A stretch of 24,887 nucleotides of DNA from Candidatus Rokuibacteriota bacterium (GCA_044866005.1 JBIOTN010000195.1:1-24887), one strand, 5' to 3'; shown: positions 3,654 through 22,332, numbered from the stretch's first letter. A program made the numbers and translations. Notes: generated by a model from the sequence alone, not told the origin.

Positions 3654-4238
3654 GAGCCCGCGCCCACTCCTTCACACTCCGGCGCGCGAAGGGCCAAGCT
3701 CTTCGCGAGGAGGAAGTCATGCTGCGTCGCGTAGACACTCACGTGAGGGTGATTCCTCTGATGGCGACTCGCGTGCCGGCTCATATGGCGACCACAGGAA
3801 TCCACCTGGTGCGCGGCGTCCCCCGCGCCCTTCCGGCGGGGGAGGGGCAGTTTCGCAGATTCGAATGCCATCCCGGCTTCGGGAAAGGAAGCCAGCATCC
3901 GGGGACTCCAAGATTTCCCGGTCGCACGGCTGCACGACGGCGACGGCGCAGAGCGCGATGAGGTAGGAGCCGTGTAGGGAAGGTGAAGTTCGGGAGTTCA
4001 CGATGCTCTGCGCCGACTCTGTCTCGGTGGAAGAGGAATGTTATGCCGGGCATCCAAGGAGGTTCCATGCGGCCTACCGATCTGGCCGGACTCCAATAAG
4101 CACGTCACCCCGCAATTCTATCTTCGCGGGTTTCGTGATCCGCGACAATCGGGAGGCGGCTATCCGCACGGTTGAGATGCGACACCGCCTGGAGGAAGCG
4201 ACCCCTAGCAGAAGCGTCAGTAGGGCGGCTGACACACG

Positions 4239-4754
4239 ATGAATGGTGCACAACGTAGGCATTGTGCCTCGGTGCTCCTTATTGTCGCGTCGATCCTGTG
4301 GTGGCATCGCTGGGTTCCGGCGCTTCTTTTGGCTGGGGTCGTGTCGTGGGCAATCCTCCACAGACGGCTCGAGGGGAATCTAGGCAGAATTCTGGGTCGC
4401 CTGTGGCGGCGGGCATGGCCGCCAAGAACCATTGCGCTGATTCCACTGCTCTCGGGCGGCACGCTCGCGTACTGGGTTACGGACGAACCCATCGCGCCGA
4501 AGGTCTTGCCGATCGCGCTCAACATAGTGGCGCTGTCGATCATGTTGTTCGGCGACTGGTGGACGTTGGCCGCTCACCCTCGGCGCTTCTGGACGGCAGG
4601 AAGGAGGGCCTGTCGGGTCCGTCGCGCGAAGTCTCAGTGGCCGGGTCCTGCGTACGCCCTGTCGCGATTGGCCGGCGCTGAGGCCGGAACAGATGCCGAG
4701 GCCAACTCGTTCATACCCGGCGTTGGGGCATCCGCGGAGACGGCCGGCCGTTGA
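4239..4754 (+). CDS. Possible 171-aa integral membrane protein, lying in the low-GC segment.
   Basis: Three hydrophobic helices are visible (ASVLLIVASILWWHRWVPALLLAGVVSWAIL; TIALIPLLSGGTLAYWV; VLPIALNIVALSIMLFGDWWTLAA). There is no Shine-Dalgarno sequence. Codon GC3 is lower than in neighbouring genes. Confidence 0.25.
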   Translation: MNGAQRRHCASVLLIVASILWWHRWVPALLLAGVVSWAILHRRLEGNLGRILGRLWRRAWPPRTIALIPLLSGGTLAYWVTDEPIAPKVLPIALNIVALSIMLFGDWWTLAAHPRRFWTAGRRACRVRRAKSQWPGPAYALSRLAGAEAGTDAEANSFIPGVGASAETAGR

Positions 4755-5261
4755 CGGCGACGCCACCGCCCGGATGTTCAAAGCCGAATGAGCTGACAAA
4801 ATCTGGAGCAAAGAGGCCGGATGCGGCCCACACTCGGGTCCTATGACGCAACGGCTACGATGCGTCATCCGGGGTAAGCCGCGTTCGAATGGGTACTCTG
4901 GACCGGACAAGCCAATAGCGCCGGCCACCATCATCCCTTCCGTCTGGCGCTTCGTGGTTGGAGCAGACACGCGCGAGGATCTGCGAATTGATGGGGCGGC
5001 GACAGGTAGAGAGGTTCACGCTGCCCCTGGGATCTTCCGATGCTTGCCCGGCTCCGTTTGATCCCCGCCCACGATAGCGCGCTCACCCCTCTCGTGCTGG
5101 GGCAAACGCTCAGTACCGAAGGAGGAACACGAAGTCCAATGCGGGTCCCTTCCACAATTCAAAGCGCGCCCCCGCAACCATACAAGGGTCAGGTTGGAAG
5201 CATAGGCTTGCCGCCACCGCAAAACTATGGGTCAAGTCACCCGGGCACCGCAAACCGGGGC

Positions 5262-5302
5262 TTGACAGGCTTCCCGGCAGTTTAGTATTCATTAAATATA
5301 GT
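5262..5302 (+). promoter_or_regulatory. Candidate promoter of the molybdoenzyme/box operon: -35 TTGACA (5262-5267) with weak -10 candidates TATTCA or TATAGT downstream.
   Basis: Consensus -35 hexamer 65 nt upstream of the GTG start at 5332. The -10 assignment is ambiguous. Confidence 0.3.
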
Positions 5303-5331
5303 TCACCTGGCCTAAACTCAGCTTTCGGGGT

Positions 5332-5817
5332 GTGCCGGTGCGCCAGCTCCTGTCGCTCAAGGTCAACGGCGAGACGTTCCAGGTCGCCGTGCCGGTCCAC
5401 AAGACGTTGCTCGAGGTCCTGCGCGAGGATCTCGGGTTGACCGGGACCAAGCACGGCTGCGAGCTCGGCGAGTGCGGGACGTGCACCGTGCTGGTGGACG
5501 GCCAGCCCGTCCTCTCCTGTCTCGCCCTCCCGATCGAGCACCAGGACGCCGAGATCCTGACCGTCGAGGGCATGAGCGGCCCGGGCGGCCTCCACCCGCT
5601 CCAGCAGGCGTTCGCCGAGCTGGGCGCCGCGCAGTGTGGCTACTGCACCCCGGGCATCCTGCTGACGGCCAAGGCCCTCCTCGAGGCCGCGCCGCGGCCG
5701 ACGCGCGACGGGATCCGGGCCGCGCTCGCCGGGAACCTCTGCCGCTGCACGGGCTACACGAAGATTCTGGACGCCGTGGAGCTGGCGGCCGGGCGGCTGG
5801 CTGCGCCGTGCCGATGA
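5332..5817 (+). CDS. [2Fe-2S]-binding small subunit of a xanthine-dehydrogenase-family molybdoenzyme (CoxS/HcrC-like).
   Basis: The 161-aa product carries a plant-type ferredoxin motif (GCELGECGTCTV) and a second cluster motif (QCGYCTPG...CRCTGY). GTG start. Confidence 0.9.
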   Translation: MPVRQLLSLKVNGETFQVAVPVHKTLLEVLREDLGLTGTKHGCELGECGTCTVLVDGQPVLSCLALPIEHQDAEILTVEGMSGPGGLHPLQQAFAELGAAQCGYCTPGILLTAKALLEAAPRPTRDGIRAALAGNLCRCTGYTKILDAVELAAGRLAAPCR

Positions 5818-5848
5818 CCGTCGGTTCTCGGCTCGGCGGGGGGGCGGG

Positions 5849-8278
5849 ATGATGGGCGCATCGCCCCCTCGCAACCTCGCCGTCGTCGGGAAGCCGCTCC
5901 CCAAGGTCGACGCCTGGGCCAAGGTGACCGGCGAGACGAAGTACGCGGACGACCTCTTCCTCTCGCGGATGGCGTACGCGAAGATCCTCCGGGCCCAGCA
6001 CCCCCACGCCCGCATCCGCGGGATCGACACGCGCCGGGCGGCCGCCGTGCCCGGCGTCTACGCCGTCCTCACCGGGAGCGACTTCGCGCCCGTGAAGTTC
6101 GGCATCCTGCCGGTCAGCCAGGACGAGGAGGCGCTCTGCCGCGAGAAGGTGCGCTACGTGGGCGACCCGGTCGCGGCCGTGGCGGCGGTGGACGAGGAGA
6201 CGGCCGAGCGCGCCATGCACCTGATCGAGGTGGACTACGAGCCGCTGCCGCCCGTCATGTCGATCGACCAGGCTCTCGCCGGCGGGAGCCACCGCATCCA
6301 CGAGTACGGCGACGGCCACAACATCCACAAGCTGGTCTCCCTCGAGTTCGGCGACGTCGAGGAGGGGTTCCGCGCCGCCGACCTCGTCCGCGAGGACGTC
6401 TTCTTCTTCGAGGGGAACACGCACCTGCCGATGGAGCAGCACGCGGCCGTCGCGCAGTGGAGCCCGGAGGGGAAGCTGACCCTGTGGTCCTCGACCCAGA
6501 CGCCGCATTACGTCCACCGGGCCCTCGGCAAGGTGCTGGGGCTGCCCATGAGCCACATCCGGGTCATCGCGACGCCGAACGGCGGCGGCTTCGGCGGGAA
6601 GTCCGATCCGTTCAGCCACGAGCTCGTCGTGGCGCGGCTGGCCCAGCGGATCGGCCGGCCGGTGAAGACCACGCTCACCCGCGAGGAGGTCTTCTACGCC
6701 CACCGCGGGCGCCATCCGGTCCTCATGTGGATCCGGAGCGGCGTGAGGATGGACGGCGAGATCCTGGCGATCCACTTCCGCTCCTACCTCGACGGCGGCG
6801 CCTACGGCTCGTACGGCGTGGCCTCGACCTTCTACACCGGCGCGCTCCAGACGGTCACCTACAAGGTGCCGCGCTACAAGTTCGAGGGCTGCCGCGTCTT
6901 CACGAACAAGCCCCCCTGCGGCCCGAAGCGCGGCCACGGCACCCCGCAGCCTCGCTTCGCGCTGGAAGTCCACCTCGACAAGGTCGCCGCGGAGCTCGGC
7001 CTCGACCCGGCGGAGATGCGGCGCCGACACGCCGTGGACGAGCACACGAAGACGGTGAACCACCTCACGATCACGACGTCGGGGCTGCGCGAATGCCTCG
7101 ACCGGGTCGTCGCCGCGTCCGGCTGGCGGGAGAAGTTCGGACGGCTGCCCGGCGGCCGCGGGATCGGCCTCGCCGCCTCCTCGTACATCTCGGGCGCGGG
7201 CCTGCCGATCTACTGGAACGACATGCCCCATTCCGGCGTCATGGTGAAGCTCGACCGCGGCGGCGGCGTCGCGGCCTTCTGCGGCTCCATCGACATCGGG
7301 CAAGGCTCGGACTCGATCCTGGCCTACGTCGTCGCGGAAGTGCTGGGCATCCGGCCCGAGGACATCCGCGTGGTGACGGCCGACACGGACCTGACCCCCG
7401 TGGACCTCGGCTCCTACTCCTCGCGCGTGACGCTCATGAGCGGTAACGCGGCGAAGGAGGCGGCCGAGAAGCTGCGCGGGCTGCTCCTCGACGTCGCGGC
7501 GAAGAAGCTCGAGGTCTCGCCCGCGGACCTCGAAGCGCGGGACCGCCGGATCTTCGTGCGCGAGGACCCGGGGAGGGGGCTGGCCTTCGACGAGGCGGCG
7601 CGGCTGGCCGAGGCCGCGTACGGGACGCTCGTCGCCGCGGGCTCTTACACGCCGCCGAAGCGCGCCGCCCGGTTCAAGGGCGCGGGCGTGGGGCCCACCC
7701 CCGCCTACTCCTACTCGGCGTGCGTCGTCGAGCTCGCGGTGGACCGGGAGACGGGGGAGATCCGCATCGAGCGGATCTGGATCGCCCACGACGGGGGGAC
7801 GGCGATCAACCCCCTCCTCGTCGAGGGGCAGGTCGAGGGCTCGGTGTACATGGGGCTCGGCGAGGCGGTGATGGAGGAGCAAGTGTTCCGGCACGGGCTC
7901 CACAAGATCCCCTCGATGCTCGAGTACAAGAGCCCGACGACGCTCGAGACGCCCGAGATCACGACCTTCCTCGTCCAGACCCACGACCCCGAGGGTCCGT
8001 TCGGCGCGAAGGAGGCGGGGCAGGGTCCGCTCCTGCCGGTGATCCCGGCGATCGCCAACGCGGTCCACGACGCCGTCGGCGTGCGGATCGACGAGATCCC
8101 CATCACGCCGGAAAAGATCCTCAAGGCCTTCGACCTCCGGGCCCAGGGCCGGCCGGCCCGGGTCGGCCCCGAGCGGCTGCCGGACGTCGCGTTCCCGGAT
8201 CCCATCCGCGTGCCGCCGCCCTGGGTGGACCCGGAGGGCCGCGCCGCCACGGCCGTCCACGGACGGGCGAAGTCCTGA
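5849..8278 (+). CDS. Molybdopterin-binding large subunit of the same enzyme (HcrA/CoxL-like), 809 aa.
   Basis: N-terminus reads KPLPKVDAWAKVTGETKYADD. Also present are NGGGFGGKSD, the AhYVHRALG region, and the C-terminal aldehyde-oxidase/XDH a/b-hammerhead and MoCo domains. Confidence 0.9.
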   Translation: MMGASPPRNLAVVGKPLPKVDAWAKVTGETKYADDLFLSRMAYAKILRAQHPHARIRGIDTRRAAAVPGVYAVLTGSDFAPVKFGILPVSQDEEALCREKVRYVGDPVAAVAAVDEETAERAMHLIEVDYEPLPPVMSIDQALAGGSHRIHEYGDGHNIHKLVSLEFGDVEEGFRAADLVREDVFFFEGNTHLPMEQHAAVAQWSPEGKLTLWSSTQTPHYVHRALGKVLGLPMSHIRVIATPNGGGFGGKSDPFSHELVVARLAQRIGRPVKTTLTREEVFYAHRGRHPVLMWIRSGVRMDGEILAIHFRSYLDGGAYGSYGVASTFYTGALQTVTYKVPRYKFEGCRVFTNKPPCGPKRGHGTPQPRFALEVHLDKVAAELGLDPAEMRRRHAVDEHTKTVNHLTITTSGLRECLDRVVAASGWREKFGRLPGGRGIGLAASSYISGAGLPIYWNDMPHSGVMVKLDRGGGVAAFCGSIDIGQGSDSILAYVVAEVLGIRPEDIRVVTADTDLTPVDLGSYSSRVTLMSGNAAKEAAEKLRGLLLDVAAKKLEVSPADLEARDRRIFVREDPGRGLAFDEAARLAEAAYGTLVAAGSYTPPKRAARFKGAGVGPTPAYSYSACVVELAVDRETGEIRIERIWIAHDGGTAINPLLVEGQVEGSVYMGLGEAVMEEQVFRHGLHKIPSMLEYKSPTTLETPEITTFLVQTHDPEGPFGAKEAGQGPLLPVIPAIANAVHDAVGVRIDEIPITPEKILKAFDLRAQGRPARVGPERLPDVAFPDPIRVPPPWVDPEGRAATAVHGRAKS

Positions 8279-8366
8279 TGCCCTCTCACGAGGTGGCAGG
8301 CCGGTGGGGGGGTCTGGGGGAGGAGCGTCGGTGGCTCCCCCCCGGCCGGAAGGAGCCGCCGCGGCG

Positions 8367-9407
8367 ATGATGCGGCTCCCGCCGTTCACGTATCTGGCGC
8401 CCCGGCGCCTCGACGAGGCGGTGCGCCTGCTCGCCGAGCACGGCGCCCACGCGATGGTCGTCGCCGGCGGGACCGACCTCTACCCGAACATGAAGCGGCG
8501 CCAGTTCGAGCCCCAGGTGCTCGTGGGGCTCCGCGGCCTGCGCGATCTCGCGGGGATCGCCGGGAGCGCACGGGACGGGCTGCGGATCGGCGCCGCCGCC
8601 ACGCTCACGCAGGTGGCGGAGCACCCGGAGGTCGCGACGTACTATCCCGCCCTGGCCCGCGCCGCGGGCGTCGTCTCCACCCCGCAGCTCCGCAACATGG
8701 GGACCCTCGGCGGGAACGTCTGCGTGGACACGCGCTGCAACTACTACAACCAGTCCTACGAGTGGCGGAAGGCGATCGGCTTCTGCATGAAGAAGGACGG
8801 GGACATCTGCCTGGTCGCCCCCGGCAGCCCGCGCTGCTGGGCGGTCTCCTCCTCGGACACGGCGCCGGTGCTGTGGACGCTCGGCGCGGACGTGACGCTC
8901 GTGGGTCCGGCTGGCGAGCGGCGACTGCCGATCCGCGCGCTCTACCAGGACGACGGCATCCAGTACCTCCGCAAGGCGCCCGAGGAGATCCTGACCGAGC
9001 TTCGCCTGCCGCCGGTGGACGGCTGGCGGGCGACCTACTGGAAGCTCCGCCGGCGGGGCGCCTTCGACTTCCCGGTGCTCGGGGTCGCCGCGGCGGTCCG
9101 GCTGGAGGGCGACGTCTGCCGCGAGGCCCGCATCGTGCTCGGTGCGGTGGCGTCCGAGCCGCGGGAGTCGGCCGACGCCGCGCGCTGCCTGGTCGGCGAG
9201 CGGCTCACGCCCGAGGTGATCGCGCGCGCCGCCGAGGCTGCGGCGCGGCCGTCCAAGCCGCTCGACAACACGGACATGGTCTACCACTACCGGAAGCGGA
9301 TGACGCGGGTCTACGTCGGTCGCGCGCTCCGCGAGCTGGCGGGCCTGCCCATCGACGGCCTCTGGCCGTCGGGCATGAGCGCCCGCGCCATCGAGGAGCG
9401 GAGCTGA
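8367..9407 (+). CDS. FAD-binding medium subunit with an inserted four-Cys loop. This is the architecture of the 4-hydroxybenzoyl-CoA reductase beta subunit (HcrB).
   Basis: PCMH FAD domain (MVVAGGTDLYPNMK...). Cys-rich insertion CVDTRCNYYNQSYEWRKAIGFCMKKDGDICLVAPGSPRCW with spacing C-x15-C-x7-C-x8-C. Start taken at MMRLPPF, which has an AAGGAG 10 nt upstream. Confidence 0.85.
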   Translation: MMRLPPFTYLAPRRLDEAVRLLAEHGAHAMVVAGGTDLYPNMKRRQFEPQVLVGLRGLRDLAGIAGSARDGLRIGAAATLTQVAEHPEVATYYPALARAAGVVSTPQLRNMGTLGGNVCVDTRCNYYNQSYEWRKAIGFCMKKDGDICLVAPGSPRCWAVSSSDTAPVLWTLGADVTLVGPAGERRLPIRALYQDDGIQYLRKAPEEILTELRLPPVDGWRATYWKLRRRGAFDFPVLGVAAAVRLEGDVCREARIVLGAVASEPRESADAARCLVGERLTPEVIARAAEAAARPSKPLDNTDMVYHYRKRMTRVYVGRALRELAGLPIDGLWPSGMSARAIEERS

Positions 9408-9411
9408 GGCG

Positions 9412-11091
9412 ATGAGCCTAGTGGGCGAGCCGGAGCGCACCGTGGTCGACTTCCGGACGGAGCCCGCCCGGTACCGGCACTGGACGCTCACCCTCGACGG
9501 CCGGGTGGCGACGCTCGCCATGGACGTCCAGGAGGACGGCGGGATCCGGCCCGGGTACGAGCTCAAGCTGAACTCCTACGACCTCGGGGTGGACATCGAG
9601 CTCGCCGACGCCGTCCAGCGCCTTCGGTTCGAGCACCCGGAGGTGGGCGCGGTCGTCGTGACGTCCGGGAAAGAGCGCGTCTTCTGCGCCGGGGCGAACA
9701 TCCGGATGCTCGGGCAGTCCAGCCACGCCTGGAAGGTGAACTTCTGCAAGTTCACCAACGAGACGCGGAACGCGATCGAGGAGGCGACCGCGGAGTCGCG
9801 GCAGACCTACCTCTGCGCGGTGGCGGGCGCCTGCGCCGGCGGCGGCTACGAGATCGCGCTGGCCACCGACTGGATCGTCATGGCCGACGACGGGAACACC
9901 GCGGTGTCGCTCCCCGAGGTCCCGCTCCTCGGCGTGCTGCCCGGGACGGGCGGGCTCGTGCGGCTGGTGGACAAGCGGAAGGTCCGGCGCGACCGCGCCG
10001 ACTTCTTCTGCACGGTCGAGGAGGGGGTCAAGGGCCAGCGCGCGCTCGACTGGGGCCTCGTCGACGAGCTGGTTCCCCGCTCGCGCCTCGCGGACGCGGC
10101 CCGGCGGCGGGCCGCGGAGCTGGCGGAGCGGAGCGACCGTCCGGCCGGCGCGCGCGGCATCCGGCTCACGCCGCTCGACCGGACGCTGGAGAACGATCGG
10201 ATCGCCTACCCGCACGTCGTGTGCGAGCTGGATCGCGGAGGAAACCGGGCCGAGATCACGATCACCGGGCCGGAGGCTCCGCCGCCGGCCGACCCGGCAG
10301 GCGTCCACGGCCTGGGGTGCGCGTTCTGGCCGCTGGCGGTCGCCCGCGCGCTCGACGACCTGATCCTCCACCTGCGCGTCAACGAGGAGGCCATCGGCGT
10401 CTGGGTCTTCCGCACGGTCGGCCGCGGCGACCTCGTCGAGGCCTACGACCGCCTGCTGGCGGCCCACGCCGCGGACTGGCTCGTCCGGGAGATCCGCCTC
10501 TACCTGCGCCGGACGCTCAAGCGTCTCGACGTCTCCTCGCGCTCCCTCGTGGCCCTCGTCGAGCCCGGCTCGTGCTTCGTCGGGACGCTGTTCGAGCTGG
10601 CCCTCGCCGCCGACCGGAGCTACATGCTGGAGGGGACCCGGGAGGGCGATGACCGGCCGCCGGCGGTGGTCCGGCTCGGCGAACTCAACTTCGGCGCCTA
10701 CCCGATGCCGAACGGCCTCACGCGGCTCCAGGGCCGGTTCCTGGGGGAGCCCGGCCGCGTGGACGAGCTGCGGGCGCGCCTCGGCGAGGAGCTCGACGCG
10801 GCCGCGGCCGACAAGGTCGGCCTCGTGACCTTCACCCCCGACGACATCGACTGGGACGACGAGGTGCGGATCGCCCTCGAGGAGCGCGCGGCGCTCTCGC
10901 CCGACGCCCTGACCGGCATGGAGGCCTCCCTCCGGTTCGGCGGCCCCGAGACCCAGGAGAGCAAGATCTTCGGCCGCCTCTCGGCCTGGCAGAACTGGAT
11001 CTTCCAGCGGCCGAACGCGGTCGGGGAGAAGGGCGCGCTGCGCGTCTACGGCAGCGGGCAGCGCGCCGAGTTCGATCGGAGGAGGGCCTGA
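9412..11091 (+). CDS. boxC: Benzoyl-CoA-dihydrodiol lyase / 2,3-epoxybenzoyl-CoA dihydrolase (BoxC), a crotonase-superfamily enzyme of 559 aa.
   Basis: Length and N-terminal motifs match BoxC (GYELKLNSYDLGVDIELADAVQRLRFEHPEV..VVTSGKERVFCAGANI; KVNFCKFTNETRN; LPEVPLLGVLPGTGGLVRLVDKRKVRRD). The start lies 4 nt after the stop of the preceding gene. Confidence 0.85.
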   Translation: MSLVGEPERTVVDFRTEPARYRHWTLTLDGRVATLAMDVQEDGGIRPGYELKLNSYDLGVDIELADAVQRLRFEHPEVGAVVVTSGKERVFCAGANIRMLGQSSHAWKVNFCKFTNETRNAIEEATAESRQTYLCAVAGACAGGGYEIALATDWIVMADDGNTAVSLPEVPLLGVLPGTGGLVRLVDKRKVRRDRADFFCTVEEGVKGQRALDWGLVDELVPRSRLADAARRRAAELAERSDRPAGARGIRLTPLDRTLENDRIAYPHVVCELDRGGNRAEITITGPEAPPPADPAGVHGLGCAFWPLAVARALDDLILHLRVNEEAIGVWVFRTVGRGDLVEAYDRLLAAHAADWLVREIRLYLRRTLKRLDVSSRSLVALVEPGSCFVGTLFELALAADRSYMLEGTREGDDRPPAVVRLGELNFGAYPMPNGLTRLQGRFLGEPGRVDELRARLGEELDAAAADKVGLVTFTPDDIDWDDEVRIALEERAALSPDALTGMEASLRFGGPETQESKIFGRLSAWQNWIFQRPNAVGEKGALRVYGSGQRAEFDRRRA

Positions 11092-12527
11092 TGGCCCCGG
11101 AGCGGACGATCGACTACGCCGAGCGGATCCCGAACAACGTCGGTCTGGCGGACAACCGCCGCCTGCTCCGGGCCCTCGAGGACTGGCAGCCGAAGTTCCT
11201 CCAGTGGTGGCACGAGATGGGGCCGGAGGGCTTCCAGGCCAAGGAGACGTACCTGCGGACCGCGGTGAGCGTCGACGCGCAGGGCTGGGCCCACTTCGAC
11301 TACGTCCGGATGCCCGACTACCGCTGGGGGATCTTCCTCGCCGAGGCCCAGCCCGGGCGGCTCGTCAACTTCGGCGCGCACAAGGGGCAGCCGGCCTGGC
11401 CGGACGTGCCGGGCGAGTACCGGGGCGTGCTCCGGCGCCTCATCGTCACCCAGGGGGATACCGAGCCCGCGTCGGTCGAGCAGCAGCGCCATCTCGGCCG
11501 GACCTGCCCGTCGCTCTACGACCTGCGCAACCTCTTCCAGGTCAACGTGGAAGAAGGCCGACACCTCTGGGCGATGGTCTACCTCCTCCACGCGCACTTC
11601 GGCCGCGACGGACGCGAGGAGGCGGAGGCGCTCCTCCAGCGCCGCTCGGGTGACCAGGACAAGCCGCGCATCCTGGGCGCCTTCAACGAGCGGACGCCCG
11701 ACTGGCTGGCCTTCTTCATGTTCACCTACTTCACGGACCGCGACGGCAAGTATCAGCTCTGCGGCCTGGCGGAGAGCGGCTTCGATCCCCTCGCTCGCAC
11801 CTGCCGGTTCATGCTGACCGAGGAGGCCCACCACATGTTCGTGGGCGAGACGGGCATCGGCCGGGTGGTCCAGCGCACCTGCGAGCTGATGCGCGAGCAC
11901 CGGACCGACGACGTCCGGAAGCACGGCGGGATCGACCTCCCGACCCTCCAGAAGTACCTGAACTTCCACTACTCGGTCTCGCTCGACCTGTTCGGGTCGG
12001 AGGTCTCCACCAACGCCGCCAACTTCTACACGTTCGGCCTGAAGGGGCGCTTCGAGGAGACGAAGCACGACGACGACCACGTGCTCAAGGACGCGATCTA
12101 CCCGGTCCTGCGCCTGGACGACGGGCGACTCGTGCCCCGGGAGGAGCCCGCCCTCGTCGCGCTGAACGAGCGACTCCGCGACGACTTCGTCGCCGACAGC
12201 CAGCGCGGGGTGGACCGCTGGAACCGGATCATCACGAAGCACGGCATCGACTTCGAGCTGCACCTGCCGCACAAGGCCTTCCATCGGGCGATCGGAACCT
12301 TCGCCGGTGCCCGCGTGTCGCCCGGAGGGGACGTCCTCCCCGAGGCGGAGTGGCAGGCCCGGCGCGACGAGTGGCTGCCGACGCGCGAGGACGAGGCCTT
12401 CGTGGCGAGCCTCATGACGCCGGTCGTCGAGCCCGGCAAGTTCGCGAGCTGGATCGCGCCGCCGCCGCGCGGGATCAACGGCAAGTCGATCGACTTCGAG
12501 TACGTCCGGCTCCGCGAGGCCGATTGA
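11091..12527 (+). CDS. boxB: Benzoyl-CoA 2,3-epoxidase (oxygenase) component BoxB, a di-iron enzyme of 478 aa.
   Basis: N-terminus IDYAERIPNNVGLADNRRLLRALEDWQPKFLQWWHEMGPEGF matches BoxB. The ATGA start/stop overlaps boxC. Confidence 0.9.
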   Translation: MAPERTIDYAERIPNNVGLADNRRLLRALEDWQPKFLQWWHEMGPEGFQAKETYLRTAVSVDAQGWAHFDYVRMPDYRWGIFLAEAQPGRLVNFGAHKGQPAWPDVPGEYRGVLRRLIVTQGDTEPASVEQQRHLGRTCPSLYDLRNLFQVNVEEGRHLWAMVYLLHAHFGRDGREEAEALLQRRSGDQDKPRILGAFNERTPDWLAFFMFTYFTDRDGKYQLCGLAESGFDPLARTCRFMLTEEAHHMFVGETGIGRVVQRTCELMREHRTDDVRKHGGIDLPTLQKYLNFHYSVSLDLFGSEVSTNAANFYTFGLKGRFEETKHDDDHVLKDAIYPVLRLDDGRLVPREEPALVALNERLRDDFVADSQRGVDRWNRIITKHGIDFELHLPHKAFHRAIGTFAGARVSPGGDVLPEAEWQARRDEWLPTREDEAFVASLMTPVVEPGKFASWIAPPPRGINGKSIDFEYVRLREAD

Positions 12528-12706
12528 CTTCGCCCAGCTTCGTCCTGCATCAGGGCCGGGACGCGCTCGGCCAGCGGCCTCGCGGCCGTCCCGGCCTGTG
12601 GGGTCGTCGTCGGCCCTCGACGCCGAACTCGTTCGCCGGGGGAGGCAGGCCCGAGCCGGTCGCTCGGGAGCGACCGGCCCGGCTTTGCCGGGAGGGCGGT
12701 CGGAGG
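12527..12706 (+). repeat. Copy 1 of a roughly 180-nt GC-rich structured intergenic element, sited directly after the boxB stop codon.
   Basis: About 55 nt are near-identical to 24724-24780 (GTCCTGCATCAsGGCCrGGACGCGCTCGGCCwGCGGCCTCGCGGCCGTCCCGGCC). The conserved GGGGGAGGCAGGCCCG block and two downstream hairpins are also shared. Confidence 0.6.
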
Positions 12707-12737
12707 GGGGCGTAGCCCCCCCTCCGAATTAGGGAAG

Positions 12738-13292
12738 ATGAGCCTGGGCGCGCGGATCAAAGGGCTGCGGACGGATCGCGGGATCCGGCAGAACGAGCTG
12801 GCGCAGAAGGCCGGCCTCACCCCGAGCCTCGTCTCCCAGATCGAGTCCGGCAAGCTCACGCCGTCGGTCCACACCCTGGGCCGGCTGGCGGGGGCCCTCG
12901 GTGTCCCCATCGGCGCGCTCTTCGACCAGAGCCCGAACGGCCGCCTCCACATCGGACGGAAGCGGGACTACGCCGTGGTGAGCTTCGAAGGGTCCGGCGA
13001 TCGCTGGGAGGTCCTGGCGGCCGGCCTCTTCCGCGGCAAGGTCCGCGCCGTCGTCTCGAGCCTCCGCGGTCGCGGCAAGAGCGTGCCGCCCGAGCGCGTG
13101 CTGATCGAGCCGGGGCAGATGAAGCTGATGTACGTGCTCCAGGGCAAGGTGGCGCTCCACTACGCAGGCGAGCGCCACCTCATGGCGCCCGGCGACTCGG
13201 CGTACCTGGACGGGGGCGTGCCCCACACCTGGGAGAACGTCGGGGCCGCCGAGGCCCGCACGCTCTGGGTCATCACGGGAAAGGACGAGTGA
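12738..13292 (+). CDS. XRE-family HTH transcriptional regulator with a C-terminal cupin sensor domain.
   Basis: N-terminal HTH_3 (LRTDRGIRQNELAQKAGLTPSLVSQIESGK). C-terminal cupin (LIEPGQMKLMYVLQGKVALHYAGERHLMAPGDSAYLDGGVPHTWENVG). Confidence 0.8.
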   Translation: MSLGARIKGLRTDRGIRQNELAQKAGLTPSLVSQIESGKLTPSVHTLGRLAGALGVPIGALFDQSPNGRLHIGRKRDYAVVSFEGSGDRWEVLAAGLFRGKVRAVVSSLRGRGKSVPPERVLIEPGQMKLMYVLQGKVALHYAGERHLMAPGDSAYLDGGVPHTWENVGAAEARTLWVITGKDE

Positions 13293-13445: not shown

Positions 13446-14480
13446 CTAGTTACAGGGTTTGTGCAGCTGGATGTTCCCGCCCTTGAGCATGCCGCCCGCC
13501 GAATAGCCGCTGCTCAACGTGATGCTGAACGTGTCGGACCCTACGCCGGGCTCGCCGTTGTCCGCCACGTCGATGGCGTAGGTGAACCCGGAGGCGCCGT
13601 TGACCTCGGCGCTTCCCTCGAAGTGCCGGCTCGTGCTCGTGGCGCCGACATCGTAGGCGGTGACGCTCGTCCCCTTCACCTTCATGCCGGTCTCGTGGTC
13701 GATGTAGGTCACGTGTCCGGTGGCCACGATCGCGCCGTCCTTCATCCCGGCGTGGAGGCCGAAGTTCGCCCGGCTGCCGGTGCCGATCCAGCCGCCACCC
13801 GTGACGAAGTCGTGACAGGGCCCGGTCTCGACGGGCGGCACGCAGCTGATGTCACTCTTGGCGCTGGACAGGATCACCTCGGCCACGCCCGGCACGACGA
13901 GGTGGATCGCGTTGACCCGGATCTCGCGGAACGTCCCGTTCACGGTGGTCGTCTGCTCGTTGATGATGAGGGTCGCGACGCCGGGAATCGTGACCGTGTG
14001 GTTCGCGGGGAACCCCCCGGGAGGCACCTGGATGGTCTGACCTCCGAAGGTGAGCTCGGCGATTTCGGTCTCCCCGCTGACGCCGTCGCACCTCGCCTCT
14101 GATTCGGCGCGGACGAAGGAGGCGGTGACCTGCGCCGCGTGGCCGGGAAGCACGACCACGTTGGCCAGGGACGCCGAGCTCTCGGCCTTGCCGCTGCCGC
14201 CGCTCGTGGAGGCGGTCAGGACCTCGGCCCTCAGCACGGCGTCCAGCGTGGCGAGGTGGAGATCCCGGGTGTCGAGGAGCGCGTCGTTGCGGGCGCCGCC
14301 GCTCGGCGGGAGCTCACCCGTGTCCGAGAGGAACATCGGGCCCGTGAGAGCCGTGTTGACGAATGCCGCGAAGGCGCGCCCGCTGAAGGTCGTCGTCGCT
14401 TCAGCCGGGGCAAGCCAGGCGAGCCCCGAGAGCAGGAGCACGACGGCGGCGCACGGAAGCTTCAGGTGCCGGATTCTCAT
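13446..14480 (-). CDS. Secreted hypothetical protein (344 aa) with a cleavable signal peptide and a Thr/Gly/Val-rich beta-type sequence.
   Basis: Start chosen at the internal Met (MRIRHLKLPCAAVVLLLSGLAWLAPAEA), which has an AGGAGG site 7 nt upstream. The ORF upstream of that Met is unconvincing. Confidence 0.55.
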   Translation of the reverse strand: MRIRHLKLPCAAVVLLLSGLAWLAPAEATTTFSGRAFAAFVNTALTGPMFLSDTGELPPSGGARNDALLDTRDLHLATLDAVLRAEVLTASTSGGSGKAESSASLANVVVLPGHAAQVTASFVRAESEARCDGVSGETEIAELTFGGQTIQVPPGGFPANHTVTIPGVATLIINEQTTTVNGTFREIRVNAIHLVVPGVAEVILSSAKSDISCVPPVETGPCHDFVTGGGWIGTGSRANFGLHAGMKDGAIVATGHVTYIDHETGMKVKGTSVTAYDVGATSTSRHFEGSAEVNGASGFTYAIDVADNGEPGVGSDTFSITLSSGYSAGGMLKGGNIQLHKPCN

Positions 14481-14721
14481 GGTGGTCCTCCTATGGTCGA
14501 CTGTCCCGATTCCATCGCTGGCGCACTGGCAGGGCAAAAGCGCGGCCGTGGCCGATCCACGGCATCGGCTCACCCCCAAGGACGCGGGAAGACAGCGCTT
14601 TCGAAGATCTGGCCGCGGCGCGGTCGCCCGCGACCCGGCGCAGGAGCGCGGCACCCGCTAGGGCAGACGGCTTGTTTTCCGAGGACTTCGCGGTGCCGCG
14701 ACGGCGCGGCGGCGCTGGCGG

Positions 14722-16083
14722 CTAGCCGACGCCGAGGTGATGCTTCCGCATGAGACGCTGCAGGGTGGAGCGGTGAATGCCGAGTACCCTGGCCGTCCGG
14801 GTGATGTTTCCGGCATGCTCCTCGAGCGCCCTTTCGAGGAATTCTTTTTCCAGGCGCTCCAGCATCTTCTCCTTCCACTCGTGGAACCGGTATCGGTCGG
14901 GCCGTTGGGCCCCCCTGAGGATGGTCTCGGGCAGGTTCTCCGGCGTGATCAGCGGTCCCTTCGCGTAGGCGGCGGCCCGCTGGACCGCGTTCTTCAGCTC
15001 GCGGACATTTCCCGGCCAGTCGTAGCGCGTCAGGAGGTCCAATGCGGCGCGCGTGATGCCCTCGAGCCTCCTGCCGTACTGCGCCCCGTGAGCCTCCAGG
15101 AAGTGCGCTGCGAGGAGCGGGATGTCCTCCCGCCGCTCCCGCAGCGGAGGCACTCGAATCTCGATGACGTCGAGCCGGAAGAAGAGGTCCTCGCGGAATC
15201 GCGCGCTGCGCAGCTCCTGCTGCATGTCGCGGTTCGTCGCCGCCATGAACCGAACGTCGAAGGGGATCGGCCTCGTCCCGCCCAGGCGGCGCACCGCCCC
15301 CTCTTCCAGGGCGCGAAGGAGCTTGGCTTGCAGATGAGACGTCAGCTCACACACCTCGTCGAGAAATACCGTGCCGCCGTTCGCGGCCTCGAGGAGCCCC
15401 GGCTTCGCGGCCTGGGCGCCTGTGTAAGCCCCCTGCTCGTACCCGAACAGTTCCGCTTCGAGAAGGGTCCCGGGGATCGCGGCGCAGTTGATCGCGAAGA
15501 AGGGCCTTTCCTGGCGCCGGCTGTTGTCGTGAATGGCCTGGGCCACCAACTCTTTGCCGGCCCCGCTTTCCCCGAGGATGAGGGTGTTGGCGTCCACCGC
15601 GGCAGCCATCCGAATCTCGTCGAACAGCTTGAGGACCGGCCTGGTCGCCCCCACGATGCCGCTGAGACTCATGGCGCGCCGGAGCTGGCTTCGCAGCACG
15701 CCGTGGGCTTCCTTCGCCCGCCGCTGCTCGAGCGCGCTCCCGACCACCGCGATCAGCTGCTGCGGTGAGAACGGCTTGACCAGGTAGTCGGCGGCTCCGG
15801 ACTTCATCGCCTGTACCGCGCTGTCCACCGTCGGGAAGCCGGTGATGAGGATCACGACGATCTCGGCATCCGTGTCCTTCGCGATCCTGAGCACCTCGAG
15901 GCCGCCGATCGCCGGCATCTTCAGATCGGTGACCACGACGTCGACGGGCGAGGCTCGCAGCGCGCTGGCGGCCGCCTTCCCGGAGTCCGCCTTGACCACC
16001 TCGTAGCCCGCGTGCGTCAGGATCTCGGCGCAGACGTCCAGGGTCCTGGGATCGTCTTCCACCAGCAGGACTCGCTCCGACAT
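14722..16083 (-). CDS. Sigma54-dependent Fis-family response regulator (NtrC-like enhancer-binding protein).
   Basis: Receiver domain (MSERVLLVEDD...VVTDLKMP). AAA+ sigma54-interaction domain (ILGESGAGKELVAQAIH; GAFTGA-type GYEQGAYTGA; ESELFGY-like AELFGY). C-terminal Fis HTH (RTARVLGIHRSTLQRLMRKH). Start taken at the internal Met MSERV. Confidence 0.9.
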   Translation of the reverse strand: MSERVLLVEDDPRTLDVCAEILTHAGYEVVKADSGKAAASALRASPVDVVVTDLKMPAIGGLEVLRIAKDTDAEIVVILITGFPTVDSAVQAMKSGAADYLVKPFSPQQLIAVVGSALEQRRAKEAHGVLRSQLRRAMSLSGIVGATRPVLKLFDEIRMAAAVDANTLILGESGAGKELVAQAIHDNSRRQERPFFAINCAAIPGTLLEAELFGYEQGAYTGAQAAKPGLLEAANGGTVFLDEVCELTSHLQAKLLRALEEGAVRRLGGTRPIPFDVRFMAATNRDMQQELRSARFREDLFFRLDVIEIRVPPLRERREDIPLLAAHFLEAHGAQYGRRLEGITRAALDLLTRYDWPGNVRELKNAVQRAAAYAKGPLITPENLPETILRGAQRPDRYRFHEWKEKMLERLEKEFLERALEEHAGNITRTARVLGIHRSTLQRLMRKHHLGVG

Positions 16084-16455
16084 CCGGGCCCTCCCGGAGG
16101 GGCGGCGGGGTGGACGCGTGGCCCCGTCCCGTGAAGGCATCGCCCCACCGTTGCCTGCAACAGTTAGCCGTTATTGTATTCAATCACCAATAATTAGCGA
16201 AAAGAAAAAAGGCGCCCCGGCGCGAGCCCGCGGGCTGCGGCCGTTCGGCGGTCCGGCGGCGCGGGCCGGGTGTCCCCCCGGGCGGGACGCCTCCCCGGGC
16301 CGGCCCGGGCGCCGGGCGCCGGCGCTGCACGGCCATCCACCGAGCTGCCGCGACCGAGGGCAGAGTCCATCGTGGCGAGCGCGTCCTTCTCCACGCCGGC
16401 CCGACCGGCTCGTCCGGAGTGGCTGTGCTACACTGCGATTCCACGAGGCGATGGC

Positions 16456-17817
16456 GTGCCGGCCGCGTTTCTCGACCCCGCCTTCTTCGATCGATCCTCC
16501 GAGACAGCGCCGGAGGAGCGCTTGCGCGCCCGCCAGTGGGAGCGCCTCGCGGCCGGCCTGCGCGAGGTGTGGGCGTCGAACCCCTTCTGGCGCGCGCGCC
16601 TGCACGCCGCCGGCCTCCGCGACGCGCGTGATCTCGCCTGCTGGGCCGATTTCGCCGCGCTTCCGCGCCTGACCAAGGCCGACCTCGTCCTCGACCAGGC
16701 CGCCCACCCGCCGTTCGGCACGAACCTCACCTATCCGCTCGACCGCTACGTCCGCCTCTTCCAGACCTCGGGCACGACCGGGCCGCCGCTCCGCTGGCTC
16801 GAGACCGACGACTCGTGGGCCTGGTGGGCCCGGTGCTGGGCCTTCGTCTACCGCGGGGCCGGCCTCGGGCCCGGGGACCGGATCTTCTTCCCATTCTCCT
16901 TCGGGCTCTTCGTCGGCTTCTGGGCCGGGCTGGAAGGGGCGCGCGCGCTGGGCGCGCTGGCGATCCCGGGCGGCGGCCAGGACTCGGCGACGCGGCTCCA
17001 CTGGATGCGGGAGCTCGGCGCCACGGCGCTCGTCTGCACGCCGTCCTACGCCCTCCATCTCGGCGAGGTGGCCGTGAGCCAGGGGTTCGAGCCCGCCAAG
17101 CTCGGGGTGCGGACGACGGTCCACGCCGGAGAGCCCGGCGCCGGGATCCCGGCCGTGCGGCAGCGGATCGAAGCGCTGTGGGGAGCCCGGGCGTTCGACC
17201 ACGCGGGGATGACCGAGGTCGGGGCCTACGGCTTCGCCTGCGGCGCGCAGGGCGGGCTCCACGTCAACGAGCTCGAGTTCATCGCCGAGGTGCTCGACCC
17301 GGACAGCGGCCGGCCCGTAGCCCCCGGAGAGATCGGGGAGCTCACGCTCACCAACCTCGGCCGCTGGGGCGCGCCCGTCCTGCGCTACCGCTCGGGTGAC
17401 CGCGTGCGCCTGGCCTCCGGGGCGTGCCCGTGCGGGCGGACGTTCATCGGCCTGGAGGGCGGGATCCTCGGGCGAGTGGACGACATGCTGATCGTCCGGG
17501 GCGTCAACGTGTTTCCCTCGGCGCTCGAGGGGATCGTGCGGGCGTTCGCGGCCGTGGACGAGTTCCAGATCGAGGTCTTCCGGCGGGGGGCCATGGACGA
17601 GGTGCGACTGCTGCTGGAGATCGACGGGACCGCGCACCCCTCCGACGCGGTGGGGCGGACGGTGCGAGACGTGGGCGAGGCGGTGCGCCGGGAGATCGGG
17701 ATCCGTGTGGACGTCGCCGCGGTCCCTGCCCGGAGCCTGCCGCGCTACGAGCTGAAGGCCCGCCGCGTCGTGCGGCGGAGAGACGAGGACGGCACGCGCA
17801 GCGAACCGACGGCGTAG
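16456..17817 (+). CDS. Phenylacetate-CoA-ligase (PaaK) family adenylate-forming enzyme, an aryl-CoA ligase of unknown substrate.
   Basis: PaaK-like N-terminal region (ERLRARQWERLAAGLREVWASNPFWRARL), the SGTTGPP P-loop, and a C-terminal VRGVNVFPS motif. The GTG start at 16456 is uncertain, and the ORF is open from 16270. Confidence 0.75.
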   Translation: MPAAFLDPAFFDRSSETAPEERLRARQWERLAAGLREVWASNPFWRARLHAAGLRDARDLACWADFAALPRLTKADLVLDQAAHPPFGTNLTYPLDRYVRLFQTSGTTGPPLRWLETDDSWAWWARCWAFVYRGAGLGPGDRIFFPFSFGLFVGFWAGLEGARALGALAIPGGGQDSATRLHWMRELGATALVCTPSYALHLGEVAVSQGFEPAKLGVRTTVHAGEPGAGIPAVRQRIEALWGARAFDHAGMTEVGAYGFACGAQGGLHVNELEFIAEVLDPDSGRPVAPGEIGELTLTNLGRWGAPVLRYRSGDRVRLASGACPCGRTFIGLEGGILGRVDDMLIVRGVNVFPSALEGIVRAFAAVDEFQIEVFRRGAMDEVRLLLEIDGTAHPSDAVGRTVRDVGEAVRREIGIRVDVAAVPARSLPRYELKARRVVRRRDEDGTRSEPTA

Positions 17818-17828
17818 AGGAGGACACC

Positions 17829-18032
17829 ATGGCTGTCGCACGCGTCACGAAGATCACCGCGGCCTCCACCCGGAGCTGGCAGGATGCGGTCACCGAGGGC
17901 CTGAAGCGCGCGAACAAGACGCTCCGCGGCATCACGGGTCTTCACGTCGTCGAGCACAAGGCGCACATCGAGAAGGGCAAGATCACGGAGTACCGCGTGA
18001 CCATGGAGATCACCTTCATCCTGGAGGATTGA
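17829..18032 (+). CDS. Dodecin-family small flavin/CoA-binding protein (67 aa).
   Basis: MAVARVTKITAASTRSWQDAVTEGLKRANKTLRGITGLHVVEHKAHIEKGKITEYRVTMEITFILED follows the dodecin pattern, as in M. tuberculosis Rv1498A (...VTMKVGFRLED). A GAGGAGG site lies 5 nt upstream. Confidence 0.7.
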   Translation: MAVARVTKITAASTRSWQDAVTEGLKRANKTLRGITGLHVVEHKAHIEKGKITEYRVTMEITFILED

Positions 18033-18037
18033 GCTCC

Positions 18038-18592
18038 ATGGAGAAGACGGCGCTCTTGATCATCGACGCCCAGCAGGAGTACTTCGCCCCCCTCGGCAAG
18101 CTCGTCTTGCCCGACGGCCCGAAAGCCGTCGCACGGATCAGCCAGGCGCTCGAGTGGGCCCGCGCGCGCGACGTGCCGGTGTTCCACGTCGTGCACGAGA
18201 GCCGCCGGCCCGGCGCGACGATCTTCGTGCCCGGCAGCCCGGCGCTGGAGATCCATCCCGCGGTGCGTCCCGCGCCGGGCGAGCCCGTGATCCGGAAGCA
18301 CCTGCCGGGCTCGTTCACCGACACGCCGCTCGAGACGGAGCTCCGGAAGCGCGGTGTCGAGCGGGTCATCGTCTCGGGCTTCATGACCCAGATGTGCTGC
18401 GACACGACGACGCGGGAGGCGGCGCACCGAGGCTTCAAGGTGACCCTGCTCGCCGACGCCACCGCGGCCATGGACGTGAAGGCGCCCGACGGTGAGCTGA
18501 TCCCGCACGACCAGGTGCACCGGACGCACCTCGCGAGCCTGAACGGCTTCCTCGCGGAGGTGAAGCGCACGGACGAAGTCACGGGCGCGTGA
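18038..18592 (+). CDS. Isochorismatase-family cysteine hydrolase.
   Basis: ALLIIDAQQEYF starts the sequence. The catalytic region VIVSGFMTQMCCDTT is present. The protein is 184 aa. Confidence 0.8.
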   Translation: MEKTALLIIDAQQEYFAPLGKLVLPDGPKAVARISQALEWARARDVPVFHVVHESRRPGATIFVPGSPALEIHPAVRPAPGEPVIRKHLPGSFTDTPLETELRKRGVERVIVSGFMTQMCCDTTTREAAHRGFKVTLLADATAAMDVKAPDGELIPHDQVHRTHLASLNGFLAEVKRTDEVTGA

Positions 18593-21510: not shown

Positions 21511-22332
21511 GTGCCGCGTCCCGCGCCGCCCGCGCCCAACGCCGATCAGGTGATCTTCGTCGGGTCGGGCGGAGGCCGCATGACCACCGCCACGCAGGCC
21601 CGCGCCACCGGGGGGCTGTGGGTGGTCCTGGACGGCGCGCGGCTCCTGGTGGACCCCGGCCCGGGAGCGCTCGTCCACGTGCGGGGACGCGCGCTCGCGC
21701 TCGATCCCACGCGCCTCGACGCGATCGTCCTCACGCACAAGCACCTGGATCACTCGGGTGACGTCAACGCCATGATCGAGGCGATGACCGAGGGCGGCAC
21801 CCGACCGCGCGGGAGTGTGCTGGCGCCGCGCGACGCGTACGAGGACGATCCCGTCATCCTCCGCTACGTCCGGCCCTACGTCGGCAAGACCCTCGTGCTC
21901 GAGCCGGGCGGCCGCTACCCGATCGGCGACGTGATCGTGGAGACGCCGCTCCGGCTGCGCCATCCCGTCGAGACCTACGGCCTCAGGCTCACCGGCCGGC
22001 GTTACAGCGTCGGCCTGATCGCGTGCACGGGATACTTCCCGGAGCTCGAGACGGCGTTCCAAACGGACGTGCTGATCCTCAACGTCGTCTTTCGCGAGCC
22101 GCGCGACGACATCCACCTGGCGCTTCCGGACGCGCGGCGTCTGATCGGCGCCATCCGGCCGCGGCTGGCCGTCCTGACCCACTTCGGCCTCACCATGGTG
22201 CGCGCCCGGCCGTGGGAGCTGGCCGAGACGCTCAGCCAGGAGACCGGCGTCCGCGTGCTCGCCGCCCGGGACCGCTGGCGGCTCGTGCTGGACGAGGCCC
22301 TGCCGGACCGCGCGGCTACGGGGACGGCGTGA
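21511..22332 (+). CDS. MBL-fold metallo-hydrolase.
   Basis: VIFVGSGGG N-terminal strand and the THKHLDHSGD metal-binding motif. The start may be the GTG at 21550 rather than 21511. Confidence 0.75.
   Translation: MPRPAPPAPNADQVIFVGSGGGRMTTATQARATGGLWVVLDGARLLVDPGPGALVHVRGRALALDPTRLDAIVLTHKHLDHSGDVNAMIEAMTEGGTRPRGSVLAPRDAYEDDPVILRYVRPYVGKTLVLEPGGRYPIGDVIVETPLRLRHPVETYGLRLTGRRYSVGLIACTGYFPELETAFQTDVLILNVVFREPRDDIHLALPDARRLIGAIRPRLAVLTHFGLTMVRARPWELAETLSQETGVRVLAARDRWRLVLDEALPDRAATGTA

Follow-up and report, generated by a model that had tools for sequence, protein, structure and literature searches.

The window analysed here is a stretch of 24,887 nucleotides (nt) from Candidatus Rokuibacteriota bacterium (GCA_044866005.1, JBIOTN010000195.1:1-24887) with a guanine-plus-cytosine (GC) content of ~70%. 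At positions 5332-12527, it carries a cluster of five plus-strand genes that spans 7.2 kb and joins a molybdenum (Mo) enzyme resembling 4-hydroxybenzoyl-coenzyme A (CoA) reductase (4-HBCR; Hcr) to BoxC and BoxB of the aerobic hybrid (box) pathway. The first gene encodes an Hcr gamma-like small subunit that carries a pair of [2Fe-2S] clusters (5332-5817; Fer2 and Fer2_2), the second an Hcr alpha-like large subunit with the Mo cofactor (5849-8278; Ald_Xan_dh_C, MoCoBD_1 and MoCoBD_2) and the third an Hcr beta-like medium subunit with flavin adenine dinucleotide (FAD; 8367-9407; FAD_binding_5 and CO_deh_flav_C). They are followed by boxC for 2,3-epoxybenzoyl-CoA dihydrolase (9412-11091; TIGR03222) and boxB for the diiron subunit of benzoyl-CoA 2,3-epoxidase (11091-12527; TIGR03225). 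The beta gene starts at 8367 in the public gene call (346 amino acids, aa), while the longest open reading frame (ORF) opens with GTG at 8304; depending on this start, the alpha and beta genes are separated by 88 or 25 nt. The gamma/alpha gap is 31 nt and the beta/boxC gap 4 nt, and the boxC stop and boxB start codons share 1 nt (TGATG at 11089-11093). A first-pass annotation of this DNA, made from the sequence alone, had described five co-directional genes in the order gamma-alpha-beta-boxC-boxB with gaps of 4-88 nt, and our ORF and domain calls verify all five genes and agree with this description; the ATGA overlap that it placed at one junction is in fact the 1-nt TGATG overlap between boxC and boxB.

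A combined sigma-70 promoter and terminator scan found no terminator-like site in the intergenic gaps of the cluster; the three such sites that it did find each lie within coding sequence, and their number equals the chance expectation. In two relatives (L082 and L083), consecutive genes even overlap across the junctions between the Mo genes, a regulator gene and the box genes. Because of the 4-88 nt gaps, the 1-nt overlap, the overlaps in relatives and the lack of an internal terminator or promoter signal, the arrangement implies that the genes at 5332-12527 form one predicted transcription unit with a single mRNA. Upstream of the gamma gene, we noted by eye a putative promoter/operator on the plus strand (5263-5310) consisting of TTGACA, a spacer of 15 nt, TAGTAT and then an AT-rich patch, TATTCATTAAATATAGTT, that stands in a genome of ~70% GC. 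The sigma-70 consensus scan reported no promoter, this element being passed over because its spacer is 15 nt. Matches to the sigma-54 promoter TGGCAC-N5-TTGC were fewer than expected by chance, and a search for an inverted repeat or operator 5' of the first gene found none. Downstream of boxB, three GC-rich stem-loops on the plus strand (12553-12727; RNA fold, z = -1.9; no U-tract) could mark the transcript end. The signals at the operon boundaries, i.e. the promoter-like element and the hairpins after boxB, are suggestive and not proof.

On the evidence set out below, we favour, with some reservation, the view that this operon encodes a hybrid route in Rokubacteria/Methylomirabilota in which para-hydroxybenzoyl-CoA, or a close analogue, would be converted to benzoyl-CoA and then enter the epoxide pathway.

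The molybdenum enzyme and its relatives

Models of 4-HBCR are the best match for all three Mo-enzyme subunits, with 180 bits for gamma (TIGR03193; NCBI equivalog cut-off 257.8), 901.7 bits for alpha (TIGR03194; cut-off 994.55) and 294.5 bits for beta (TIGR03195; cut-off 404.55). For alpha, XdhA is the next family at 556 bits. Among solved structures, alpha matches Thauera HcrA (1RM6_A) with 659 bits and all others with at most 292 bits, the score of the next PDB match, CO dehydrogenase; thus, the clustering with hydroxylases that the first-pass annotation had named as grounds for refutation is not seen. By the family and PDB scores, the enzyme does not group with the CO, quinoline, nicotinate or xanthine enzymes. 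The gamma subunit keeps both four-Cys [2Fe-2S] motifs. In beta, each of the five Cys in the insert of Thauera HcrB has a counterpart in the alignment to 1RM6_B, which bears out the diagnostic Cys insertion that the first-pass annotation had noted in this subunit besides the gamma-alpha-beta gene order, and the Cys motif CVDTRCNYYNQSYEWRKAIGFCMKKDGDICLVAPGSPRC is invariant in 12 related loci. The insert is absent from a control, the unrelated xanthine oxidase (XO)-family trio on the L081 contig. The five-Cys insert, ~40 residues long in 4-HBCR, is predicted to hold an extra [4Fe-4S] cluster. On the L081 contig, this second, insert-less trio lies on the minus strand (L081:10371-14017), convergent with and immediately downstream of the Hcr-like genes.

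To place alpha among its relatives, we used a bootstrapped neighbour-joining tree from one alignment of 150 sequences, in which the window protein was joined by Rokubacterial homologues, by proteins of the canonical Hcr group and by representatives, chosen at 50% identity, of the matches in an exhaustive HMMER search; HbaC, Geobacter Hcr and Ucdh references were left out. The window's Rokubacterial clade and the canonical Hcr clade are each recovered with 100% bootstrap support. The Rokubacterial clade groups with P0241, a protein from Ignavibacteriales, at 98%, and both fall with canonical Hcr into a superclade of 30 leaves at 78%. The canonical proteins form a tight group, 75-94% identical to the Thauera protein, and bear the corresponding names at NCBI; their representative P0258 scores 1301.7 bits with TIGR03194, while the scanned superclade members outside the canonical clade score 770-933 bits and are sub-threshold. 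The Rokubacterial alpha homologues carry only generic NCBI names, and the nearest ones, labelled Rokubacteria/Rokuibacteriota or Methylomirabilota, are at most 90% identical to the window protein.

P0241 (57% identity) is a gamma-alpha fusion, its beta subunit carries the five-Cys insert, and the genes lie directly 3' of BcrB/A/D-like genes and of genes for a Had-like dehydrogenase, an acyl-CoA dehydrogenase and an indolepyruvate:ferredoxin oxidoreductase. This locus, on a metagenome-assembled genome (MAG) of Ignavibacteriales (L166:1-13833), is a compact cluster of anaerobic type that also holds a MocA-like gene; the oxidoreductase excepted, its aromatic-pathway matches score slightly below equivalog cut-offs. 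An acidobacterial relative likewise adjoins Bcr-like genes, and a canonical Hcr of Aquabacterium adjoins bcr-like, pad-like and PaaK-like genes. Because both P0241 and the canonical Aquabacterium Hcr lie beside bcr-like genes, the lineage is tied to the formation of benzoyl-CoA, and the P0241 neighbourhood supports a role of the enzyme as a benzoyl-CoA-forming dehydroxylase.

Linkage to boxC and boxB

BoxC and BoxB are, by their sequences, clear and ordinary orthologues. BoxC scores 910 bits with TIGR03222 (cut-off 712) and 714 bits with Burkholderia xenovorans BoxC (2W3P), and BoxB scores 866 bits with TIGR03225 (cut-off 499). The identities proposed in the first-pass annotation are thus borne out by scores above both NCBI equivalog cut-offs, and the comparison with Azoarcus evansii BoxB that it called for gave 743 bits to 3PER with the diiron motifs EEGRH and EEAHH intact.

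Two surveys addressed the linkage between the Mo genes and the box genes. In a scan anchored on BoxB, which took a single genome for each GTDB species and covered 80 loci with flanks of 10 kb on either side, the order boxC-boxB was found in all 80 loci, and the three Mo genes in the order gamma-alpha-beta (hcrGAB) lay immediately 5' of boxCB in six loci, mostly labelled Rokubacteria/Methylomirabilota and in one case binned as Limnocylindria. By contrast, none of the ~73 loci from other groups (Proteobacteria, Binatia, Acidobacteriota, Dehalococcoidia and others) had Hcr genes near box. In a scan of JGI metagenome contigs anchored on alpha, 44 loci were informative, i.e. had at least 2.6 kb of sequence downstream of alpha, and box genes lay directly 3' in 33 of these. 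The 11 box-less loci form a separate subclade with beta subunits at most 61% identical, while in the subclade to which the window belongs, all informative loci of this survey have the box linkage, an invariance that argues for selection on joint function. In most relatives, a gene for an XRE/cupin protein is placed between the beta gene and boxC, and in many, boxB is followed by genes for RidA, a benzoate-CoA-ligase-family protein and a PaaK-like ligase. Thus, the connection of the Mo genes to boxCB, which the first-pass annotation had read from a single locus, is conserved over many Rokubacteria/Methylomirabilota contigs, often with overlapping genes. The Hcr lineage as a whole is thus found repeatedly beside dearomatisation systems that consume benzoyl-CoA, and only in the Rokubacterial clade does this partner depend on O2.

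The same neighbourhoods bear on a different explanation, in which the operon would be an island of benzoyl-CoA metabolism whose parts act at different times: without O2, growth would rely on the Mo enzyme and on a benzoyl-CoA reductase from another locus, and the box genes would be used for growth with O2 or to scavenge it. The bcr-like genes beside canonical and sister-clade Hcr genes fit this idea, as does the anoxic expression of box genes in Azoarcus, where they have been proposed to act as an O2-scavenging system (as summarised in PMC5852087). However, the tight gaps, the 1-nt overlap and the overlaps of Mo, regulator and box genes in relatives, all without an internal terminator or promoter signal, imply one mRNA, and the linkage that is invariant within the window's subclade argues for selection on joint function; we consider this explanation quite improbable.

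Some loci depart from the common arrangement. In three related metagenome loci (L093:11188-13663, L096:11180-13672 and L108:7119-9561), boxC-boxB is replaced by genes for a crotonase (262 aa; ECH_1) and a diiron protein (371-394 aa; Pfam PaaA_PaaC) that is 37-38% identical to BoxB; the pair is preceded by hcrGAB and xre and followed by genes for RidA, a benzoate-CoA-ligase-family protein and a PaaK-like ligase. This pair may represent a second, undescribed type of aryl-CoA epoxidase/hydrolase that partners the same Mo enzyme. Two contigs binned as Chloroflexota and Dormibacterota encode BoxB proteins that are 79-80% identical: the one from a Limnocylindria MAG (L006) carries a full, Rokubacteria-like hcrGAB-xre-boxCB-ligase-ligase module, and the other, from a Dormibacterota MAG (L005), is short and, besides boxC and boxB, has no more than the beginning of a ligase gene. 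Their placement reflects either horizontal transfer or mis-binning.

A proposed CoA-dependent route for phenolic acids

In the route that we favour, one of the two ligases of the module would activate a para-hydroxylated benzoate, most simply 4-hydroxybenzoate, and the Mo enzyme would reductively strip the para-hydroxyl group to yield benzoyl-CoA. Low-potential electrons would pass from the [4Fe-4S] cluster via FAD and the [2Fe-2S] clusters to Mo, as they do in the Thauera 4-HBCR. By orthology, BoxB would then epoxidise benzoyl-CoA with O2, and BoxC would open the ring hydrolytically to give 3,4-dehydroadipyl-CoA semialdehyde and formate. Genes outside the operon would supply a reductase for BoxB, an aldehyde dehydrogenase and the enzymes of beta-oxidation, as well as the electron donors of both redox steps. 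Control of the module probably lies with the XRE/cupin regulator that accompanies it. Altogether, this would plausibly be a fully CoA-dependent route for phenolic acids that combines a peripheral step of the "anaerobic type" with "aerobic hybrid" box cleavage and that suits low or fluctuating O2.

Several observations weigh against this route. All three Mo-enzyme subunits lie below the equivalog cut-offs for 4-HBCR, and identity to HcrA and HcrB of Thauera, which form the only structurally characterised enzyme, is no more than 43% for alpha and 43% for beta. Alpha lies outside the clade of characterised enzymes and joins it only at the superclade level; of 104 signature positions, defined by a conservation of at least 95% among canonical members and by occurrence in at most 10% of outgroups, the Rokubacterial clade retains the canonical residue at 12. 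There is no cultured or characterised organism among the members of the window's clade or its sister clades, and L081, a close relative (alpha 79% identical) outside the metagenome survey, has the Mo genes without box genes. In the local neighbourhoods searched, a boxA homologue is absent from the window and every Hcr-box locus, and a boxD homologue from the window and every related locus. The Thauera 4-HBCR needs reduced ferredoxin, and the window contains no gene for a ferredoxin or a ferredoxin-reducing enzyme. Finally, 4-HBCR is reported to be oxygen-sensitive (bioRxiv 10.1101/2025.01.17.632430).

The designation of the enzyme as HcrCAB-type in the first-pass annotation is therefore sound in one respect, since 4-HBCR is by far the closest match of the enzyme among the characterised XO-family members, and too specific in another, given the sub-cut-off scores, the 43% identity and the separate clade: judged by its sequence, the enzyme is Hcr-like and not demonstrable as an orthologue of HcrCAB. 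Because the alpha clade lies outside the canonical one and keeps so few of its specific residues, we can only infer the substrate, which may be 4-hydroxybenzoyl-CoA or another para-substituted aryl-CoA. The same chemistry might act on a different compound, such as 4-aminobenzoyl-CoA, protocatechuoyl-CoA or a methoxylated or hydroxylated lignin-derived benzoyl-CoA, with benzoyl-CoA or an analogue then passed on to BoxB. The distinct alpha clade and the sub-cut-off scores would fit this variant, the sequences of the two ligases do not reveal their substrates, and there are precedents for other substrates: in Desulfatiglans anilini, Hcr-like paralogues are induced by aniline and 4-aminobenzoate and have been proposed to form a 4-aminobenzoyl-CoA reductase (PMC7500099), and the XO-family dehydroxylase Ucdh, with 33% identity to 4-HBCR, uses urolithin C, so that reductive para-dehydroxylation reaches beyond canonical 4-HBCR (bioRxiv 10.1101/2025.01.17.632430). 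However, among such substrates 4-hydroxybenzoate is the most common one in soil, 4-HBCR is the closest enzyme that has been characterised, and the locus encodes no aminotransferase, demethylase, second hydroxyl-handling enzyme or other pointer to a different compound. We therefore regard a different substrate as unlikely, although it is the variant that we would take most seriously.

The missing boxA and boxD genes invite another explanation, namely that the Mo enzyme is not a dehydroxylase here but replaces BoxD by oxidising the aldehyde product of BoxC, replaces BoxA by delivering electrons to BoxB through its FAD/[4Fe-4S] subunit, or does both. Aldehyde oxidoreductases do belong to the XO family, and the likely binding of CoA esters by the enzyme would fit a CoA-linked aldehyde. 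However, although boxA adjoins boxB in 40 of the 80 box loci, 33 of the ~73 loci without Hcr also have no boxA within 10 kb, and boxD is missing within this distance in most; because local absence of boxA and boxD is thus common where there is no Hcr, it does not call for a local substitute. These boxA-less loci (L008, L010, L011, L013, L015, L016 and about 27 more) come mainly from Alphaproteobacteria, "Deltaproteobacteria", Binatia, Dehalococcoidia and Acidobacteriota, and ORF clustering of 23 of them returned a CoA ligase as the sole conserved neighbour of boxCB and no substitute gene. Moreover, the sister clade represented by P0241 adjoins genes resembling those of the anaerobic benzoyl-CoA reductase in a locus with no box genes, and the [4Fe-4S] insert is reportedly the distinguishing feature of the inverted, reductive flow of electrons in 4-HBCR. 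Replacement of BoxA or BoxD by the Mo enzyme therefore seems to us very improbable. In some betaproteobacterial loci, a second boxB paralogue lies just 3' of boxA (L022:12866-14281, L037:12674-14074 and L070:4049-5452); its product is 62-63% identical to the window's BoxB.

Returning to the dehydroxylation route, its most far-reaching version would have an oxygen-compatible 4-HBCR working alongside the O2-dependent epoxidase in the same cell and at the same time, with the FAD/[4Fe-4S] subunit or its donor perhaps also feeding BoxB; the latter suggestion arises because boxA is missing, such that the Mo complex or its donor might supply the electrons for BoxB. We consider this version improbable and put it forward as speculation. 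If true, phenolic acids would be degraded by a third strategy, one that depends on CoA throughout and dispenses with a ring-hydroxylating oxygenase, and dehydroxylation and epoxidation would both run on a single low-potential electron input.

4-HBCR is taken to mark the anaerobic degradation of aromatics and the box genes to mark the aerobic hybrid pathway, and metagenome surveys count the two separately. The operon that joins both markers sits in an abundant, uncultured phylum of soil and groundwater. If the proposed route is correct, hcr-type genes in soil metagenomes need not signal anoxic metabolism, and lignin-derived phenolic acids would have an additional route of degradation at low or fluctuating oxygen. 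The operon would also offer a natural setting in which to see whether a Mo enzyme of the Birch type that depends on ferredoxin can function beside O2. The first-pass annotation knew of no characterised case of this arrangement, and we found no description of an hcr-box operon, or of a route from 4-hydroxybenzoyl-CoA to box, in the searchable full-text literature, a body of text that most subscription journals lie outside. Co-mentions of 4-HBCR and box in this literature are incidental gene listings, for SAR324 bins and a benzene consortium, and benzoyl-CoA metabolism in Rokubacteria is not discussed in it beyond a single incidental co-mention. A soil-MAG preprint simply includes 4-HBCR in its count of "benzoyl-CoA pathway" genes. 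The component families are known; the novelty lies in their combination in a conserved operon within one phylum and in the distinct clade of Hcr-like enzymes.

Genomic surroundings and comparison with known systems

The operon is followed on the plus strand by the gene for the XRE-helix-turn-helix (HTH) and cupin regulator (12738-13292; Pfam HTH_3 and Cupin_2). Next come two minus-strand genes, for a choice-of-anchor-P/post-COAP-1 protein (13446-14654) and a sigma-54 response regulator (14722-16140), which stand between the box operon and the two ligase genes; because the ligase genes directly follow boxB in most relatives, the segment 13446-16140 apparently stems from an insertion or rearrangement by which the module was split. 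Beyond it, the plus strand encodes a PaaK-like aryl/acyl-CoA ligase (16456-17817; AMP-binding and AMP-binding_C_2), a dodecin (17829-18032), an isochorismatase-like protein (18038-18592), a benzoate-CoA ligase family protein (18589-20259; TIGR02262), a TtuA-like protein (up to 21494) and an MBL-fold protein (21511-22332). A HAD hydrolase (22316-22948) and a PNPOx-like protein (22945-23343) are encoded on the minus strand, and a generic thiolase (up to 24608) again on the plus strand. The PaaK-like ligase has 2-hydroxyisobutyryl-CoA synthetase and PaaK as its best PDB matches and scores below the PaaK cut-offs. The second ligase scores 568 bits with TIGR02262, above the cut-off of 375, and its best PDB matches are anthranilate-CoA and benzoate-CoA ligases; by its sequence, its preferred substrate may be benzoate, 4-hydroxybenzoate or anthranilate.

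As gene content, the two aryl-CoA ligases and the thiolase that the first-pass annotation had listed downstream are indeed present; however, two opposite-strand genes intervene, and the thiolase is generic and lies 11 kb from the operon. The "complete funnel" that was drawn from these genes is overstated, since the window contains no boxA, no boxD and, among its genes, no specific 3-oxoadipyl-CoA thiolase.

At the other end of the window, groEL (843-2465) and groES (2516-2824) lie on the minus strand. The ~1.4 kb at ~3900-5330, directly upstream of the operon, contain no convincing ORF: the GC content (~63%) is lower than that of the window, and no ORF has a coding-like bias in GC content at third codon positions. 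The public record has no gene call in this region, and Rfam and tRNA scans gave no match there or anywhere else in the window. It could be a decayed gene, a mobile-element remnant or an unusually long regulatory region. A public contig, JBIOYM010000168.1 from a MAG (GCA_044870165.1), encodes an alpha protein identical to that of the window. The beta protein of the window (8304-9407) and that of the public contig with identical alpha (L084:12456-13556) are 99.2% identical and differ, for example, at GFCLKK/GFCMKK. The window thus comes from an assembly or strain that is near-identical to, yet distinct from, this contig.

Among characterised systems, the Mo enzyme is by a wide margin most similar to HcrCAB of Thauera aromatica (1RM6/1SB3) and HbaBCD of Rhodopseudomonas palustris. 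As in these enzymes, there are three subunits in the gamma-alpha-beta order, an XO-family Mo subunit, two [2Fe-2S] motifs in the small subunit and a Cys-rich [4Fe-4S] insert in the FAD subunit, and a pathway that consumes benzoyl-CoA, here boxCB, and two aryl-CoA ligases are encoded nearby. However, while the partner of HcrCAB is the ATP-dependent benzoyl-CoA reductase, the partner in the window is O2-dependent. The operon also has no adjacent XdhC/MocA maturation genes, in contrast to the L170 locus, which has such genes. The box genes, in turn, resemble those of A. evansii and Burkholderia/Paraburkholderia xenovorans in that BoxB and BoxC are orthologous, the order is boxC-boxB and a benzoate-CoA-ligase-family gene is nearby. 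In contrast to these systems, no boxA follows boxB, boxD is lacking, and the box genes are preceded within the operon by an Hcr-type Mo enzyme; moreover, betaproteobacterial box loci have their own regulator gene, divergent and 5' of boxC, while the regulator in the window is of the XRE-HTH and cupin type.

The Ignavibacteriales enzyme P0241 is from the sister clade and shares the five-Cys insert in beta; it differs from the window enzyme in that gamma and alpha are fused and in that it belongs to an anaerobic-type cluster that has no box genes. More distantly, UcdhABC of Enterocloster bolteae carries out an XO-family reductive para-dehydroxylation like that proposed for the window enzyme (bioRxiv 10.1101/2025.01.17.632430). 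Its identity to 4-HBCR is only ~33%, its substrate is a non-CoA compound and it uses NADH; HcrA is much nearer to the window enzyme.

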